Positions 3,869 through 49,930 of a stretch of 64,000 nucleotides of DNA are shown in pieces. The notes under the pieces were generated by a model that searched no databases, was not told the origin of the DNA, and worked only from the letters and a program-made list of their open reading frames with translations. The DNA is from Acidimicrobiia bacterium. GTDB lineage: Bacteria; Actinomycetota; Acidimicrobiia; Spongiisociales; UBA11373. The stretch is taken from NCBI GenBank assembly GCA_035464675.1, contig DATHSA010000054.1, positions 7,998 through 71,997 of the forward strand, read 5' to 3'. Every line of letters begins with the position of its first letter. The stretch's first letter is position 1. A program made the translations under genes and the position numbers.

Positions 3869-3917
3869 CCAGTGAAAGATATGGGCGACCTGCGACGAGG
3901 GGAAGGGAGTAGCTCGT

Positions 3918-3948
3918 CAGTCGCCAGTCACCAGTCACCAGTCACCAG
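3918..3948. repeat. Heptanucleotide tandem array CAGTCRC x4.4
   Basis: cagtcgc cagtcac cagtcac cagtcac cag, read directly. Intergenic between the response-regulator stop and the M23 start. Confidence 0.9.
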
Positions 3949-3977
3949 CAGGATGCGTCAGACCCCGCGGGCGCGTC

Positions 3978-3998
3978 TTGCCAATTGCCAATTGCCAG
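3978..3998. repeat. Heptanucleotide tandem array TTGCCAA x3
   Basis: ttgccaa ttgccaa ttgccag, immediately followed by the hairpin at 4003-4023. Confidence 0.85.
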
Positions 3999-4002
3999 TC
4001 GC

Positions 4003-4023
4003 GGGACGAGCGAAGCGAGTCCC
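4003..4023 (-). terminator. Stop-codon-abutting hairpin with GCGAAGC core
   Basis: GGGAC-GAGCGAAGCGA-GTCCC. Its last nt is the first nt of the TAG complement (4023-4025) of the response regulator. The same 13-nt core recurs at 46945-46957. Confidence 0.5.
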
Positions 4024-4409
4024 TACGCGATCGCCTCGGTGGGGCCGGCGAGCAGGCCGAGCGCAACACTGCGGAGATCGTCCGGACGGAACGGCTTGGT
4101 GAGGAACGCATCGGCACCGCCGCGGTCGGCGCGCTCCCTGGTCTCCTCCTGGGCATGGGCGGTGAGCACGAGCACCTTCATCGCCCGGGTGCGCGCATCT
4201 GAGCGAATGCCATCGAGCACCTCCCAGCCGTCCATCCTGGGAAGGCCGACGTCGAGGATGAGGAGATCGGGTTGCGTGGTGAGCGCAGCCTCGAGACCTG
4301 TTGGGCCGTCGGAACGGGTCTCGACCTCCACGCCCGCAGGGCGCAGGCACACCGAGATGAGCCGCTGTATGACGGCGGAATCCTCGACGACCAGTACACG
4401 CTGAGCCAC
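4023..4409 (-). CDS. Stand-alone CheY-like receiver-domain response regulator
   Basis: VLVVEDS...DLLILDVGLPRMDG...VLVLTA...FLTKPF are canonical receiver motifs. 128 aa with no output domain. GTG start. Confidence 0.9.
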   Translation of the reverse strand: MAQRVLVVEDSAVIQRLISVCLRPAGVEVETRSDGPTGLEAALTTQPDLLILDVGLPRMDGWEVLDGIRSDARTRAMKVLVLTAHAQEETRERADRGGADAFLTKPFRPDDLRSVALGLLAGPTEAIA

Positions 4410-10902: not shown

Positions 10903-11505
10903 ATGGACCGCAGAGACGATCGGGGCTGGGTGGAGGTGATCTGCGGCCCCATGTTCTCGGGCAAGAGCGAGGAGCTGATCCGGAGGATCACCCGCTACAA
11001 CATCGCTCGGGTCCCGACACAGACCTTCAAGCCGGCCATCGACGACCGCTACGCCACCGACTCGGTCGTCTCGCACTCCTCGCTCACCACGGCCGCCGAA
11101 CCCGTCGCCGACAGCACCGAACTGCTCAACCGCGTCAGAGAGTCGACAGTCGTCGTCGGAATCGATGAGGCGCAGTTCTTCGACGACGGCCTCGTGGACG
11201 TGGTCGCCCAGCTCGCCGACGCCGGTAAGAAGGTGATCGTGGCCGGCCTCGACCTCGACTATCTGGGGCGCGCCTTCGAGCCCATTCCGACACTCATGAC
11301 TCGGGCCGAGTACGTCACCAAGAGCCTCGCCGTCTGCCACCGATGCGGAGGCGCCGGCATGTTCACACAGCGCGTGATCGCCTCCGACGAACTGGTCGTG
11401 CTCGGGGCCGAGGGCGCATACGAGGCCCGCTGCCGCCGCTGCTACGACCCCGGGGAGGGCCAGCAGGAGCGCCTCGAGATCGAGTCGGAGACCGCGCCAG
11501 GATGA
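10903..11505 (+). CDS. tdk: Thymidine kinase
   Basis: ATG 10903 gives MDRRDDRGWVEVICGPMFSGKSEELIRR (P-loop). C-terminal zinc-ribbon cysteines CHRCG...CRRC. Confidence 0.92.
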   Translation: MDRRDDRGWVEVICGPMFSGKSEELIRRITRYNIARVPTQTFKPAIDDRYATDSVVSHSSLTTAAEPVADSTELLNRVRESTVVVGIDEAQFFDDGLVDVVAQLADAGKKVIVAGLDLDYLGRAFEPIPTLMTRAEYVTKSLAVCHRCGGAGMFTQRVIASDELVVLGAEGAYEARCRRCYDPGEGQQERLEIESETAPG

Positions 11506-26836: not shown

Positions 26837-26911
26837 GGTGACCGAGGGGACTCGAACCCCCGACCTCCAGGGCCACAACCTGGCGCTCTAACCGCCTGAG
26901 CTACGGTCACC
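26837..26911 (-). tRNA. tRNA-His (anticodon GTG) with encoded G-1
   Basis: G-GTGACCG...CCAGG-TTGTGGC-CCTGG...GGGGGTTCGAGTCCCCT-CGGTCAC-C. Confidence 0.9.
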
Positions 26912-26915
26912 ATGC

Positions 26916-26985
26916 GGAGCCACAGGCTCCAATTCCTCCAGGGCCGCATCACACAGGCAGCTCTACCGCCTGAGCTACGGTCACC
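26916..26985 (-). pseudogene. Decayed tandem copy of tRNA-His (pseudo-tRNA)
   Basis: The 5' leader, acceptor and D-arm (tccgcatgGGTGACCGTAGCTCAGGCGGTAGAGC) are almost identical to the functional copy. The anticodon and T arms and the 3' acceptor do not fold. Confidence 0.6.
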
Positions 26986-27031
26986 ATGCGGAACTGCTGT
27001 TCCGAACCATGCGGGAACCCGGCGCTCGCAG

Positions 27032-27104
27032 TGCCCCCGGAGGGATTCGAACCCCCGACCAAGAGCTTAGAAGGCTCCTGCTCTGTCCACTGAGCTACAG
27101 GGGC
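27032..27104 (-). tRNA. tRNA-Arg (anticodon TCT)
   Basis: GCCCCTGTAGCTCAGTGGAC...GGAGC-CTTCTAA-GCTCT...GGTTCGAATCC...CGGGGGCA. Confidence 0.9.
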
Positions 27105-27149
27105 GAGGTCCGAACACCCGCCGGGCGCTCCTCTCGGCGAGTGCCCGTC

Positions 27150-27221
<72 letters not shown>

Positions 27222-27396
27222 CGGTTCCCGGGGCAGGATAGACCGGAAGCCTCCGGTCTCCAGCTTCCCGCCTCCAGCAAGGAACGCCTCACGGGTCAGT
27301 CGTGTTTCCCGCGGGTATCGGCGTTTCTGGTGCCTCGCTTCAGCCGGCTTCGCACAGCCGTTGTCAGTGCCCAAGTCCGGCCGGGAACGAACAGGG

Positions 27397-27482
27397 TGCG
27401 GGCGGTGGGACTCGAACCCACAATGGACGTGAAGCCCACCGGGTCCTAAGCCCGGCGCCTGTGCCAATTCGGCTACACCCGC
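27397..27482 (-). tRNA. tRNA-Leu (anticodon TAG), long variable arm
   Basis: GCGGGTGTAGCCGAATTGGC...CCGGG-CTTAGGA-CCCGG, a long variable arm, GGTTCGAGTCC, then CGCCCGCA. Confidence 0.88.
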
Positions 27483-27488
27483 GGGACG

Positions 27489-27560
27489 TGGGTCGCCAGG
27501 GATTCGAACCCTGAACCTGCTGGTTAAGAGCCAGTTGCTCTGCCGTTGAGCTAGCGACCC
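27489..27560 (-). tRNA. tRNA-Lys (anticodon CTT)
   Basis: GGGTCGCTAGCTCAACGGCAGAGC...CTCTTAA loop...GGTTCGAATCCCTG-GCGACCCA. Confidence 0.85.
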
Positions 27561-27993
27561 AGAGGCAGGGTAGCAACGTCGAAATACCAGCCACCCTCGG
27601 CCAACTCGTCGATCCACACCATCGTGCGGACCCACCAATCGGTGCTGCGACGAGCCGCAACTCGGCAAACACCATGGGCGAGATGATTCTTTCGATGACC
27701 CGGGCCGCCGGCTCGATCGCCTTGATCTGCGCCCGCCGGCGCCCCTGAGTGCTCCGGCGCCCGTTGGGTCGTGGGGCTGTTCGTCTCCGCATGGCCGCCC
27801 TCTGTTCGGAGGTCGAGTCCACACCGCGGCACCACATCGACAGGGTCGGCTTCGACATCGGAAGGATCTCGGAGATCTCCGTCAGCGACAGGCCGCATGC
27901 GCGTAGCCGGCGAGCCAGACCGAACCTCTCGTCCCTGCTGAGGACGCTCCAACGACCCGCCGTGACGCGCAACTCATCTGGAACCAGATCCAT
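27551..27993 (-). pseudogene. HTH-domain ORF wedged between divergent tRNAs, apparently frameshifted
   Basis: ATG 27993 gives MDLVPDELRV...RLRACGLSLTEISEILPMSKPTLSMWCRG (HTH-like). Third-position GC drops near 27645-27650 and resumes in another frame (STDWWVRTMVWIDELAEGGWYFDV...), which ends at a TAG inside the tRNA-Lys 5' end. The unshifted frame reads through two tRNAs. Confidence 0.3.
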
Positions 27994-28045
27994 GCCGACA
28001 AGGTATGGGAATGCTGTGACGCGACTTCGTGTCACAATTCGGCGA

Positions 28046-28119
28046 CGGGCTGTGGCGCAGTTTGGCAGCGCGCGTGCTTTGGGAGCACGAGGCCGCCGGT
28101 TCGAATCCGGCCAGCCCGA
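28046..28119 (+). tRNA. tRNA-Pro (anticodon TGG)
   Basis: CGGGCTGTGGCGCAGTTTGGC...CGTGC-TTTGGGA-GCACG...GGTTCGAATCC...CAGCCCGA. Confidence 0.9.
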
Positions 28120-45864: not shown

Positions 45865-45887
45865 AGTCGGCCCGGGAATGAGCAGAG

Positions 45888-46234
45888 TGGAGGTGCGGGG
45901 AGTCGAACCCCGGTCCTGTGAGCTCTCGACGTCGGTTCTCCGAGCGCAGCCGATAGATCGTTTCGGGGGACGGGACCCTATCGGCGGGCGGACCCGATCC
46001 CTAGCCGGAAGTGTCTTGACCCGCCGGTCCCGGCATCCCGGCGGGAGCATCCCCCATTGCGTCGCCCGGATCCGGCGAGGGGGGAGCCCTCCGGTCGGAC
46101 GGGCCGCTTATTTAGGCAGCCAGTGCGAAGTTGTCTTCGGCACGTATGTGTTTCCCGGTTCTTTAGCGAGGACTCCGGGGACCTCGGCTCGCTACCGACG
46201 CTTTGATTCTCACAGTCGAAACCATGTCACCCCC
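45888..46234 (-). ncRNA. ssrA: tmRNA (SsrA)
   Basis: The 5' end GGGGGTGACATGGTTTCGAC pairs with the 3' end CACCTCC-A (G3:U70). T-arm GGGGTTCGACTCCCC. Tag reading frame GCC GAA GAC AAC TTC GCA CTG GCT GCC TAA gives AEDNFALAA (46112-46141). Adjacent to smpB. Confidence 0.88.
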
Positions 46235-46911: not shown

Positions 46912-46940
46912 CGAATCGCGAATCGCGAATCGCGAATCGC
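46912..46940. repeat. Heptanucleotide tandem array CGAATCG x4
   Basis: cgaatcg x4 perfect, directly followed by the hairpin at 46941-46961. Confidence 0.92.
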
Positions 46941-46961
46941 GGCCCGAGCGAAGCGAGGGCC
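46941..46961 (-). terminator. Hairpin with GCGAAGC core after ftsX
   Basis: GGCCC-GAGCGAAGCGA-GGGCC, 7 nt from the ftsX stop complement (46968-46970). The core is identical to 4008-4018, with compensatory outer-stem changes. Confidence 0.5.
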
Positions 46962-46967
46962 AATCCA

Positions 46968-47849
46968 TCAGTCCCTCAGGAAGCCCCACATCCCGAAGGC
47001 GCTCCCGAGGAGACCGGTACCGGCGCCGAAGCCGAGCACGATGAGAGCCTGGCGAATCATGAAGTCCGTCGGCGGATTCAGTGACCCGGGATCGGTGGCC
47101 GTCGACAGCAGCTCAGCGATCGAGCCACCGGCCGCCCACACGAGGGCTATGGCGAGCACGGCTCCGATCACGCCCTCGATCACACCCTCGAGAAGGAACG
47201 GGATGCGAACGAACCAGTTTCCCGCACCCACCAGCTTCATGATCCCTATCTCGTCTCGTCGGGCGAAGATTGCGATCCGGATCGTGTTGGCGATGAGAAC
47301 CACCGCGGCCAGGGCGAGGACGATCCCGATCCCGAGCGCAAACGTCCTCATCTTCCCCGCCCGTGCCACCAGATTGTCGATCGCCTCGTCTGCCGATGAA
47401 ACCTGGAACACCCCGGGGACGACGACGAGCCGATCGCGGATCGTCGAGTAGTCGGCGGCCTCGGTGGGTCGTATCCGGAGAGATGCCGGCAGGATCGACG
47501 GGTCCTCCTCGACTATCTCGATGAGGGAGGGCTGATCCGAGAAGATCTCGCGGAACTCCTCGAGTGCCTGCGTCTTCGTGTAGTAGATGACCTCGTCGAC
47601 CTCGTCCCAGGTCCGGATGTCAGCCTGCATGGAGTCGATTTCCTCCAGGCTCAGGTCGTCGCCGAGGAAGGCGATGACACGAACGTTGTCGTCCCACCTG
47701 CCGATGTCCTGGTCGATCGACCAACCCACGATCCTCGTGCCGAACACCAGTGCCAGCATCACGAAGACGGCGACGACGGCAGCAAAGACCACCAGGACGT
47801 TTCGGCGGAGGTTCGAGATCGCCTGCTCGAGGATGTACTGGAACCGCAT
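46968..47849 (-). CDS. ftsX: Cell division ABC transporter permease FtsX
   Basis: ATG 47849 gives MRFQYILEQAISNLRRN.... Four TM helices with a large periplasmic loop. Follows ftsE. Confidence 0.9.
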   Translation of the reverse strand: MRFQYILEQAISNLRRNVLVVFAAVVAVFVMLALVFGTRIVGWSIDQDIGRWDDNVRVIAFLGDDLSLEEIDSMQADIRTWDEVDEVIYYTKTQALEEFREIFSDQPSLIEIVEEDPSILPASLRIRPTEAADYSTIRDRLVVVPGVFQVSSADEAIDNLVARAGKMRTFALGIGIVLALAAVVLIANTIRIAIFARRDEIGIMKLVGAGNWFVRIPFLLEGVIEGVIGAVLAIALVWAAGGSIAELLSTATDPGSLNPPTDFMIRQALIVLGFGAGTGLLGSAFGMWGFLRD

Positions 47850-47850
47850 G

Positions 47851-48588
47851 TCAGCCTTCGGTGGCCTCTTGCTCGCCGGTGGCACTGGCTCCGACCGGCT
47901 CCTCCACACCCATCTGGTAAGCGCCGCGGGTCTGGTCGCGGATGACCCTGCCACGCTCGAGAGCCACCACCCGGCGTCGCATGGCGTCGACGATCGCGTG
48001 GTCGTGAGTCGCCATCACAACGGTCGTGCCGGTGCGGTTGATACGGTCGAGAAGCCGCATGATCCCCACCGAGGTCGCCGGGTCGAGGTTCCCGGTCGGC
48101 TCGTCGGCCAGGAGGATCAGGGGCCGGTTGACGAACGCCCGGGCGATCGAGACCCGCTGCTGCTCACCGCCGGACAACTGATTGGGGAGGCGGTCCGACT
48201 TGGCGGCGAGGCCGACCAGCTTGAGCACCTGAGGCACCTGCGACCGGACGACGTTCTTGGGACGGCCGATCACCTCGAGAGCGAACGCGACGTTCTCGTA
48301 GACCGTCTTGCTGGGGAGCAGCTTGAAGTCCTGGAAGACGGTGCCGATGGAACGTCGGAGCATGGGGATCTTCCAGGCCGGCAACGCGGTGATCTCCTTG
48401 CCGGCGACCCAGATCTGCCCTTCCGTGGGAAGCTCCTGGCGGAGCATCAGGCGGATCAACGTCGATTTTCCCGAGCCCGAAGGACCGACGAGGAAGACGA
48501 ATTCGCCCTTGGAGATCTCGAGGTCCACGTCCGTGACGGCGACGATGTCGCCGTCGTAGACCTTCGCTACGTCCTGCAACCGGATCAT
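47851..48588 (-). CDS. ftsE: Cell division ATP-binding protein FtsE
   Basis: [30 protein letters not shown]. Confidence 0.93.
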
Positions 48589-48725
48589 GTACGCCTCTCG
48601 GAGTGCTGCCGCGGTGTCCCTTCGGCACCCACTCCGCCCGCGACGCTCGCGGCGAGGTTAGTGACCGACTTGGGAAAGCCCGATGATTCTGGTGCATCGC
48701 CGGAGATAGGCCAATCGGGCCGGAC

Positions 48726-48815
48726 GAGAGCGAAGGGCGGAGAGCAGAGGGCGAAACCTCGGCATCGATGCCCGCTCGGGGCGGAGAGGCGGAAGGGTAA
48801 GGCAGGAGGCCGGGA
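48726..48815. repeat. Purine-rich period-7 tracts downstream of prfB
   Basis: gagagcg aagggcg gagagca gagggcg (48726-48753) and gcggaga ggcggaa gggtaag gcaggag gccggga (48781-48815), ending at the prfB stop. Confidence 0.55.
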
Positions 48816-48816
48816 C

Positions 48817-49930
48817 CTAGCCCGCGGACTCCGCCTGTTCTCGCCGCCACTGGAGGTAGGCGTCGACGAATCGGCCGATCTCGCCGTCGAGGACGCCGTT
48901 GACGTTGCCGATCTCCACGTCGGTCCTGAGGTCCTTGACCATCTGATACGGCTGGAGGACATACGATCGGATCTGCCGGCCCCAGGCCGCCTCGCCCTGC
49001 TCACCGCGGATCTCGTCCAGCTGCTCCTCACGATCCCGGCGGGCGCGCTCTGCGAGCCGGGCGGCAAGAAGGGTCATGGCGCGGTTCCGATTCTGCAGCT
49101 GGGAGCGCTCAGCCTGGCAGGCGACGACGATCCCGGTCGGGATGTGGGTGATCCTCACCGCGGAATCGGTCTTGTTGACATGCTGCCCGCCTGCTCCCGA
49201 GGCCCGGAAGGTGTCGATCCGCAGCTCCTCCGGGTCGATGGCCACGTCCTCGATCTCGACCTCCGGTATGACATCGACCCCGGCAAAGGACGTGTGTCGT
49301 CGCGAGGCCGAGTCGAAGGGACTTATGCGAACGAGGCGGTGCACTCCACGCTCCCCCTCCAGGGTCCCGTAGGGACGATCACCCCGGACCGTGATCGTCG
49401 CCGACCTGATCCCGGCCTCCTCGGCCTCCAGGTACTCGTCGACCTCGACCTCGAAGCCCTCGCGCTCCAGGAATCGCAGGTACATGCGAAGCAGCATCTC
49501 CGCCCAATCGGAGGCATCGACCCCGCCGGCGCCGGCGTGGACGCTCAAGATCGCCGGGCTGTCGTCATACTCGCCGAAGTACAACGCCTCGCGCTCCAGT
49601 TTCGACAGATCCTCGTCGATCCGGCCCAATTCGACGGCGACGTCGGATGCGGCACCGGCATCGGACTCCTCCTCGGAGAGCTCCAGAAGCACCTCGGCGT
49701 CGTCGATCGCGGCGGCCAGTGAGCCGACCCGGTCGATGATCCCTTCGTAGCGAGAGAGGGTTCGAGTCACCTCGAGGGCGTTGTCACGGTCGTCCCAGAG
49801 ATGAGGGTCGGCCGACCGGTCTCTCAGGTCGTCGAGTGCGGCGCGCTTCGCTTCGACGTCAAAGGAACCTCCTGGCGTCGTCGAGGCGCGATTGGAGCGA
49901 GGCGATGAGGGCGCGGGGATCGTCGTGCAT
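48817..49930 (-). CDS. prfB: Peptide chain release factor 2, with programmed +1 frameshift
   Basis: ORF0 is ATG 49930 ... AGG AGG TTC CTT TGA C (TGA at 49859-49861). A +1 shift joins it to ORF 48817-49770 (LDVEAKRAALDDLRDRSADPHLWDD...). The SPF and GGQ (SGAGGQHVN) motifs are present. Confidence 0.93.
49858..49873 (-). promoter_or_regulatory. RF2 autoregulatory frameshift site
   Basis: An internal SD-like AGGAGG sits 3 nt upstream of the CUU UGA C slippery/stop motif. Confidence 0.9.

Follow-up and report, generated by a model that had tools for sequence, protein, structure and literature searches.

Two hairpins beside heptamer arrays in an uncultured Acidimicrobiia genome are probably copies of a dispersed REP/BIME-like DNA repeat

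The window, by which we mean the whole 64,000-nt stretch of DNA analysed here, comes from a draft Acidimicrobiia genome of 2.13 Mb and 68% G+C and contains two short hairpins with an identical 13-nt core. Copy 1, GGCCCGAGCGAAGCGAGGGCC, lies at positions 46941-46961 with its purine-rich, folding strand on the plus strand. Its core, CGAGCGAAGCGAG (46945-46957), is flanked by the outer stem GGCC/GGCC, and the predicted fold comprises 5 bp, a 2x2 GA/AG internal loop, 2 bp and a triloop. The foot of the hairpin is 6 nt from the TGA stop (46968-46970, minus strand) of ftsX (ORF 46968-47954; Pfam FtsX_ECD and FtsX domains), and on its inner side, distal to ftsX, stand four perfect CGAATCG units (46912-46939, plus strand), an array of what we call the WATYGCG class. 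Copy 2, GGGACGAGCGAAGCGAGTCCC (4003-4023, plus strand), has its core at 4007-4019 within the outer stem GGGA/TCCC. It ends in C4023, complementary to the G in the TAG stop (4023-4025, minus strand) of a response-regulator receiver gene (PF00072; 4023-4409, a call also present in an ENA contig), and thus stem and gene overlap by one base. Beside copy 2 lie about three TTGCCAA units (3978-3998, plus strand), the last of which ends in G, and the same intergenic spacer holds a second array with another unit, CAGTCAC (3920-3948, plus strand).

An earlier note, made from the letters of the window, had described both hairpins, their common core, two differences in each arm of the outer stem with complementarity intact, and a position just 3' of a minus-strand gene in each case, and direct reading of the sequence agrees with all of this. 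Its two perfect heptamer arrays need a small correction, since the CGAATCG array is perfect and the TTGCCAA array is not. A covariance model built from 69 copies, with which the window was scanned up to E <= 10 with filters off, gives 35.1 bits for each hairpin (E about 1e-7 for both; 1.3e-7 for copy 1), and the next match in the window reaches only 19.5 bits. A third, degenerate copy had also been claimed at 48722-48740; this segment has no complementary arms and overlaps no model match in that scan, and we do not count it as a family member. The matches at 11403-11430 (19.5 bits) and 1059-1080 (17.9 bits) were treated as chance, because they have neither an adjoining heptamer array nor the full core and look like ordinary sequence.

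Other genes nearby, assigned by Pfam, encode SmpB, an FtsE-like ABC ATPase, a class-I release factor and an M23 peptidase. A tmRNA (146.5 bits, 45885-46234, minus strand) directly downstream of smpB completes the gene row prfB-ftsE-ftsX-smpB-ssrA, and a tRNA gene cluster occupies 26837-28119. Upstream of the release-factor ORF (48817-49770), positions 49858-49880 of the minus strand read AGGAGGTTCCTTTGAC, in which a Shine-Dalgarno-like AGGAGG is separated by a short spacer from CTT TGA C, an arrangement that resembles the +1 programmed frameshift site classically seen in prfB; the ORF begins at position 28 of the PCRF profile, consistent with such a site. Rfam searches of the window, of both hairpin elements and of ten relatives' loci, at gathering and permissive thresholds, returned no match to the elements; the only matches at gathering score were the tmRNA and tRNAs, with nothing near threshold on the elements.

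The core is not restricted to the window. Exact CGAGCGAAGCGAG occurs 13 times in the genome, against about 0.2 occurrences expected from base composition. With the loop base left free, CGAGCG-N-AGCGAG is present in 27 copies (reversed-pattern control, 4), in 143 and 83 copies in two sister species of the same genus, and in 18 copies in a third congener with a control of 10; across the three congeners with 27, 83 and 143 copies, the reversed control gives 3-14. The stemmed form GS-core-SC was found in 103 of 401 Acidimicrobiia genomes, with controls near zero, and it forms bursts of 79, 54, 31, 20, 14 and 14 copies in scattered lineages: copy number is high in G001, G002, G373, G335, G294 and G007 and about zero elsewhere. 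We analysed 141 copies, taken from this genome (G000), 22 loci of its relative G001 and 48 regions of G002. Of these, 113 are outside called coding regions, and 74, hereafter family A, have a heptamer array before the core on the purine strand. Gene positions come from rough codon-usage gene calls, and the calls that place 9 of the 74 inside coding regions are probably spurious. A genome-wide search for further copies had been proposed in the earlier note; many were found, and the outer stem is kept in them (68 distinct copies). The copies relate to one another as paralogues within a dispersed repeat and do not represent conserved orthologous sites.

In the 68 distinct copies, 89.5% of the cells at the proposed stem pairs are paired, compared with 81.2 +/- 0.9% after shuffling (none of 500 shuffles reaches the observed value) and 26-45% with slid partners. 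A separate permutation gave 229 Watson-Crick pairs among 296 against 180 +/- 4.6, and a count of double-sided stem changes gave 27 against 7.5 +/- 2.3 in shuffles. Because stem pairing and double-sided changes both exceed the shuffled and slid controls, the fold-back is maintained, and the covariation first noticed between the two window copies is real and family-wide. That covariation had been taken as the signature of selection on structure. The maintenance of the fold-back supports this in part, but the structured 3'-end RNA kept by selection that it implied is unsupported.

The core C-G-A-G-C-G-N-A-G-C-G-A-G is invariant in all 68 aligned copies, a set selected for the exact core. It can be parsed as C:G, G.A, A.G, G:C, C:G and then G.A around N, in which positions 4-10 are the exact sequence of the d(GCGNAGC) mini-hairpin and positions 1-4 facing 10-13 are an exact CGAG/CGAG block; thus all the conserved bases are paired on the purine strand and only N is free. 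The complementary, pyrimidine strand would instead have C.T and T.C mismatches and a TNC loop. The 'CGAG block', which consists of C:G, sheared G:A, sheared A:G and G:C pairs, is a DNA motif solved by NMR (PMC10085684). The d(GCGNAGC) mini-hairpin, studied by Hirao and co-workers, melts at 70-76 C, is formed by GNA loops only and is stabilised by N in the order A > G > C > T; the DNA form melts at 76.5 C, whereas its RNA counterpart melts at 39 C (review PMC13037366). Outside called coding regions (113 copies), A occupies the loop position 72 times, C 27 times, G 14 times and T never, so that A makes up 64% where 16% A and 16% T would be expected. The extremes of this bias agree with the published order, A being commonest and T absent. 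By analogy with these motifs, the conserved part seems best explained as a DNA, not an RNA, hairpin, and we infer that it folds as DNA. ViennaRNA reproduces the predicted topology, with the two strands differing by 0.4 kcal/mol as DNA and by 2.1 kcal/mol as RNA. The nearest-neighbour DNA fold is only -5.1 kcal/mol, from a parameter set that has no entries for the mini-hairpin and CGAG-block motifs. Because the DNA energies separate the strands by so little, the strand argument rests on the published motif measurements. Wobble asymmetry in the three inner pairs of the outer stem (G:T 8 versus A:C 4) singles out no strand.

In family A the hairpin usually sits at the outer end of a WATYGCG heptamer array, and the usual layout is (ACGCG)TTCTGTCG or TCTTGC, then (WATYGCG)3-5, GGC, the core, GCC and a pyrimidine linker; the inner boundary TCTGTCG or TCTTGC is present in 31 of the 74 copies. 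There are 407 period-7 arrays in this genome. The core is carried by 21 of the 56 WATYGCG-class arrays (about 40%), with units such as AATTGCG, AATCGCG and TTGCCAA, whereas arrays of the three commonest CCCGTT-type units carry it in only 5 of 161 cases. The remaining WATYGCG-class arrays have G+C-rich end hairpins of unrelated sequence, among which the C-GNA-G triloop occurs in 5 of 16 and its complement C-TNC-G in none of 16. Twelve elements are two-armed, back to back, with a cap at each outer end. The combination of array and cap in alternating orientation, along with reuse of the core in a second kind of element, is that of a BIME-type mosaic, and the intergenic period-7 tandem arrays themselves correspond to bacterial heptamer repeats (STRR/LSSR).

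This second kind of element, type B, reads CCTCCCCCGC-loop-GCGGGGGAGG-TGGA-core-GCCGGAGGGGG in this genome and has the general form CCTCCCCC(GC)-loop-(GC)GGGGGAGG-TGG(A)-core-(A/G)C(C)GGAGGGG. Its sites include C56:2358, C70:14353/14417, C24:7805/7878, C79:35859 and C83:5978, as well as loci L016 and L024 of G001. The elements are arranged as inverted pairs and, in G001, also as tandem rows of four with spacings of about 57-140 nt, and the first of the two hairpins often has a GNA loop. An identical core lies inside yet other repeats, namely CTCCCCCC...GGGGGGAG-ACA-core-AGAGGGGGG in G373 and GTCCCCCTTTCAAGGGGGACG-core-AGGGGGATC in G294. Judged by these sequences, the core is also part of B-like repeats in other families of the class.

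Comparison with relatives indicates rapid turnover. When the family-A sites of G001 and G002 were mapped onto this genome, the core was kept at only 1 of 38, the ftsX-smpB spacer. At that spacer, in a comparison covering 30 relatives, G002 and one metagenome contig (FtsX 78% identical) share the hairpin with this genome. It is missing from the closest relative (93%), which has another array, AGTCTCC; other congeners have yet different arrays, and in outgroups the spacer measures 13 nt. The stop at the response-regulator locus is directly followed by a different heptamer array in every genome, and the hairpin is found there in this genome only. The units after the receiver-gene stop (window 3869-4022 and orthologues L042-L046) include AGTCTCC, CGTTGCC, CCGCTGT and TGGCAAT, and to judge from them the arrays are replaced wholesale at a fixed spot. 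A metagenome strain in ENA, 99.8% identical, has the same element as copy 2 and is therefore uninformative on gain or loss. Between G001 and G002, three orthologous copies keep the hairpin and its flank and differ in loop base or array unit; the hairpin is more durable than the arrays. It is nevertheless far too unstable between species for a gene-specific regulator, and a gene-specific function is therefore improbable. No clean pair of filled and empty sites with defined ends was obtained among the relatives compared. Because whole spacers differ between relatives, propagation or mobility as a unit is inferred.

The placement of the copies relative to genes falls into two nearly equal groups. 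Among the 64 classified family-A copies, 34, including both window copies, turn their hairpin side toward an opposite-strand stop codon 0-17 nt away, and 30 toward a same-strand gene start 5-190 nt away. The spacers of the 55 classifiable copies are convergent in 16, divergent in 12 and tandem in 27, roughly as random placement would give, which argues against a dedicated terminator. Since the array is always 5' of the purine core, transcripts reading into a stop-adjacent copy carry its weaker pyrimidine version. As to strand, the purine strand is unbiased with respect to local GC skew (12 versus 15), so that there is no link to the leading or lagging strand, and its relation to the majority coding strand is weak (8 versus 19, p = 0.05).

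The stops adjoining core hairpins are TAG in 27 cases, TAA in 4 and TGA in 6. Stops beginning with TA make up 8 of 10 at core hairpins in G000 (p = 0.003; baseline 33%) and 17 of 21 in G002 (p = 0.007; baseline about 52% among the other genes of the fetched loci). Pooling gives p = 4e-10, which exaggerates the effect because the baseline differs between the genomes. Furthermore, a TA lies within 12 nt beyond the core, at its outer end, in 48 of the 74 copies (65%) compared with 11.5% at random positions. Orthologues in this genome that have no core end in TA-stops in 14 of 21 cases, suggesting that a TAG already in place accounts for at least part of the preference. The effect appears specific to core-bearing caps, since heptamer arrays in general show only modest enrichment of TA-stops (55% versus 33%, p = 0.04) and plain hairpins none. 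At several start-adjacent hairpins the pyrimidine linker is followed by a TANNNT box (TACACT, TACCCT, TATACT) and then by ATG 6-8 nt on (L066, L097, L072 and L078 in G002; L001 and L008 in G001). This layout is like that of a leaderless-mRNA promoter, in which the repeat would occupy the position of the -35 element. TAG is also the commonest stop, at 50%, in about 290 kb of G002 (L052-L099), against 31% here; TAG use seems higher in the species richer in hairpin copies, in a G002 sample that is biased to element-bearing regions.

Taken together, we consider it probable, though well short of certain, that the hairpin is one instance of an intergenic DNA repeat module, dispersed and amplified by lineage among uncultured Acidimicrobiia, which is REP/BIME-like and acts at the DNA level. 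The invariant 13 nt would then be two documented DNA folds stacked on each other, a CGAG block below and a GCGNAGC mini-hairpin on top, with an apex in which a C:G pair is closed by a sheared G:A and N is the single unpaired base. The outer stem, 3-5 bp of free sequence, would extend this fold, which would form only on the purine-rich strand. The module would abut a neighbouring gene either at its stop codon, preferably TAG or TAA, or at its -10/start region. When the duplex opens, the purine strand may snap into a compact hairpin, and this fold-back may be maintained by the process that copies or replaces the elements, or by fold-back templated repair, with any effects on neighbouring transcripts as by-products. 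Repair of this kind could yield 'compensatory' changes without selection on RNA. Several observations do not favour a DNA-level repeat: no mobilising enzyme of the Y1/RAYT or DDE_3 type was found in the three expanded genomes, all draft MAGs; the comparison of relatives yielded no clean filled and empty pair; the wobble pairs and the DNA energies described above separate the strands little or not at all; the purine strand shows no bias with respect to GC skew; and the tight placement beside stop codons would also suit an RNA role for about half of the copies.

An element that works at the 3' end of RNA, either as an intrinsic terminator without a U-tract or by blocking 3'-exonucleases and so stabilising the upstream mRNA, is in our judgement unlikely, yet it deserves serious consideration. 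In E. coli, REP sequences have been reported to act in the latter way, and U-tracts are often missing from actinobacterial terminators. Such a role also fits the tight placement at stop codons of about half of the copies, and RNA folding is predicted for both strands, the mRNA-sense versions reaching -9.9 and -7.8 kcal/mol. However, the other half of the classified copies lie upstream of a same-strand gene start, the 12 of 55 between divergent genes are about as many as random placement gives, and the sites are not conserved at orthologous genes. Where a copy does adjoin a stop, it is the weaker, pyrimidine version that enters the mRNA. The T-run of an intrinsic terminator is absent after both window copies, and copies are not confined to positions downstream of genes. 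In addition, the loop bias tracks the stability extremes of the DNA mini-hairpin, and the core matches motifs that are far more stable as DNA than as RNA (PMC13037366). The turnover and orientation data largely refute a conserved structured cis-regulatory RNA or small RNA, which we regard as scarcely credible. Stem covariation is what such an RNA would show, but the structure is merely 21-25 nt, has no match in Rfam, occupies every intergenic orientation, and occurs at high copy number in lineage-specific bursts at loci that are not conserved between orthologues.

Two further explanations dispense with RNA. The hairpins could have arisen in place, with no element involved, by replication slippage and fold-back template switching, the 13-mer being merely the most stable end-point reached independently each time. 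Template switching in quasi-palindromes produces paired changes in a single step, which would account for the double-sided stem changes. Different heptamer units at the same orthologous spot in sister genomes and cap hairpins of many unrelated sequences would also fit. Nevertheless, we hold an origin in place to be improbable: it would require more than 100 independent convergences per genome on a motif with 12 specified bases, and neither the 5-fold difference in copy number between congeners nor the patchy bursts across the class agree with it. The copies also have flanking motifs in common beyond the core, namely the GGC/GCC stem, the pyrimidine linker and the TCTGTCG/TCTTGC boundary. The 13-mer could alternatively be read as a direct repeat, AGCG-N-AGCG, forming a duplex-DNA binding site for a nucleoid-associated protein or a regulator. 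The strictness with which 12 positions are conserved, in several repeat families and across the class, would suit such a site, and E. coli BIME/REP elements bind IHF, gyrase and Pol I (PMC2817692). Binding to duplex would give no need for arms of free sequence to stay complementary, however, and would leave the match between loop-base bias and hairpin-stability extremes unexplained; no candidate protein emerged either, and we consider the chance of such a site very small.

The dispersed DNA repeat, which we favour, resembles the REP/BIME/REPIN elements of Enterobacteria and Pseudomonas (PMC2817692, PMC3116915) in several respects. Those too are short, G+C-rich imperfect palindromes present in tens to hundreds of copies, strictly intergenic and often right after stop codons; they form mosaics with other motifs and inverted pairs, vary in copy number between relatives, and have a palindrome preserved by paired changes. 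In contrast to REP, the Acidimicrobiia element is joined to heptamer tandem arrays and has a conserved apex, the 13-nt all-paired purine mini-hairpin, on a stem of free sequence, whereas in REP the stem sequence itself is conserved. It also differs in having no RAYT in the expanded genomes and no GTAG head. A search for RAYT/Y1 (PF01797) gave no match in the draft MAGs G000-G003, G007, G009, G020 and G036, with 6 known genomes positive, and GTAG is not found at any palindrome foot in the alignment; heptamer units lead into feet that consist of GGC/GCC or variants. The element is REP/BIME-like in distribution and dynamics, yet it is not a member of the REP family. A RAYT-like appearance was also seen at nucS (EndoMS) of G001, which is bracketed by two plus two inverted type-B copies. 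This candidate was dropped as a coincidence, because nucS is unbracketed in G002 and six other genomes. A nucS homologue is present in G001 (C19:6307-6972), G002 and six other relatives and was not found in G000, G003, G009 and G020; from G000 the gene may truly have been lost, or repeats flanking it may have left a gap in the assembly.

MITEs that target TA (IS630/Tc1-mariner) share with these elements their small size, non-autonomy and inverted ends, a TA immediately outside the element end (in 65% of copies here), and a junction at which a stop codon can survive. Here, by contrast, the ends are variable beyond the core, a TA duplication at both ends is undemonstrated, and the IS630-type DDE_3 domain (PF13358) is absent from the draft MAGs G000-G002. 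Draft MAGs often lose IS elements. The heptamer repeats described elsewhere, including cyanobacterial STRR, GGGNATC of Xanthomonas and Nostoc (PMC4692102) and TAACTGA of Beggiatoaceae (PMC4679880), are likewise intergenic period-7 arrays, with several unit types per genome, rapid change and a function without explanation. The WATYGCG class differs in ending in a G+C-rich hairpin; no capping hairpin is mentioned in the abstract of PMC4692102 or came up in a term search of PMC4679880. As for the mini-hairpin and the CGAG block, they have been studied in oligonucleotides, phage and plasmid origins, the phage N4 promoter and a human promoter and are undescribed as a conserved unit of a chromosomal repeat family. 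The likeness drawn here is one of sequence.

A bolder and distinctly speculative reading is that the CGAG block and the GNA mini-hairpin together are the working DNA signal of a RAYT-independent propagation system in Acidimicrobiia. The single-strand fold would be recognised or exploited by a putative enzyme that sets hairpin-capped heptamer arrays beside TA (TAG/TAA stops and -10 boxes), and the signal would be common to several otherwise unrelated repeat families across the class. If the DNA-repeat reading that we favour holds, chromosomes would here make natural, high-copy use of two DNA folds that have so far been met mostly in oligonucleotide chemistry and in a few phage and plasmid origins. 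The long-unexplained heptamer arrays of bacteria would be tied to a defined terminal structure, giving a handle on what makes and moves them, and, should the TAG/TAA link result from targeting, it would represent a kind of insertion preference new for bacterial repeats. Expression of neighbouring genes may be affected, because the elements lie on stop codons and promoters, and in comparative screens they can mimic covarying RNA structures.

The elements have a practical consequence for assembly as well. Many copies lie within 100-150 nt of contig ends, for instance at C33:17, C50:14, C57:14, C36:91 and C42:85 in G001, at C4:89, C5:155 and C9:75 in G002, and on several contigs of G373, so the core repeats apparently break short-read assemblies of MAGs. 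One G001 contig terminates, after a type-B copy, in G and C homopolymers plus N.
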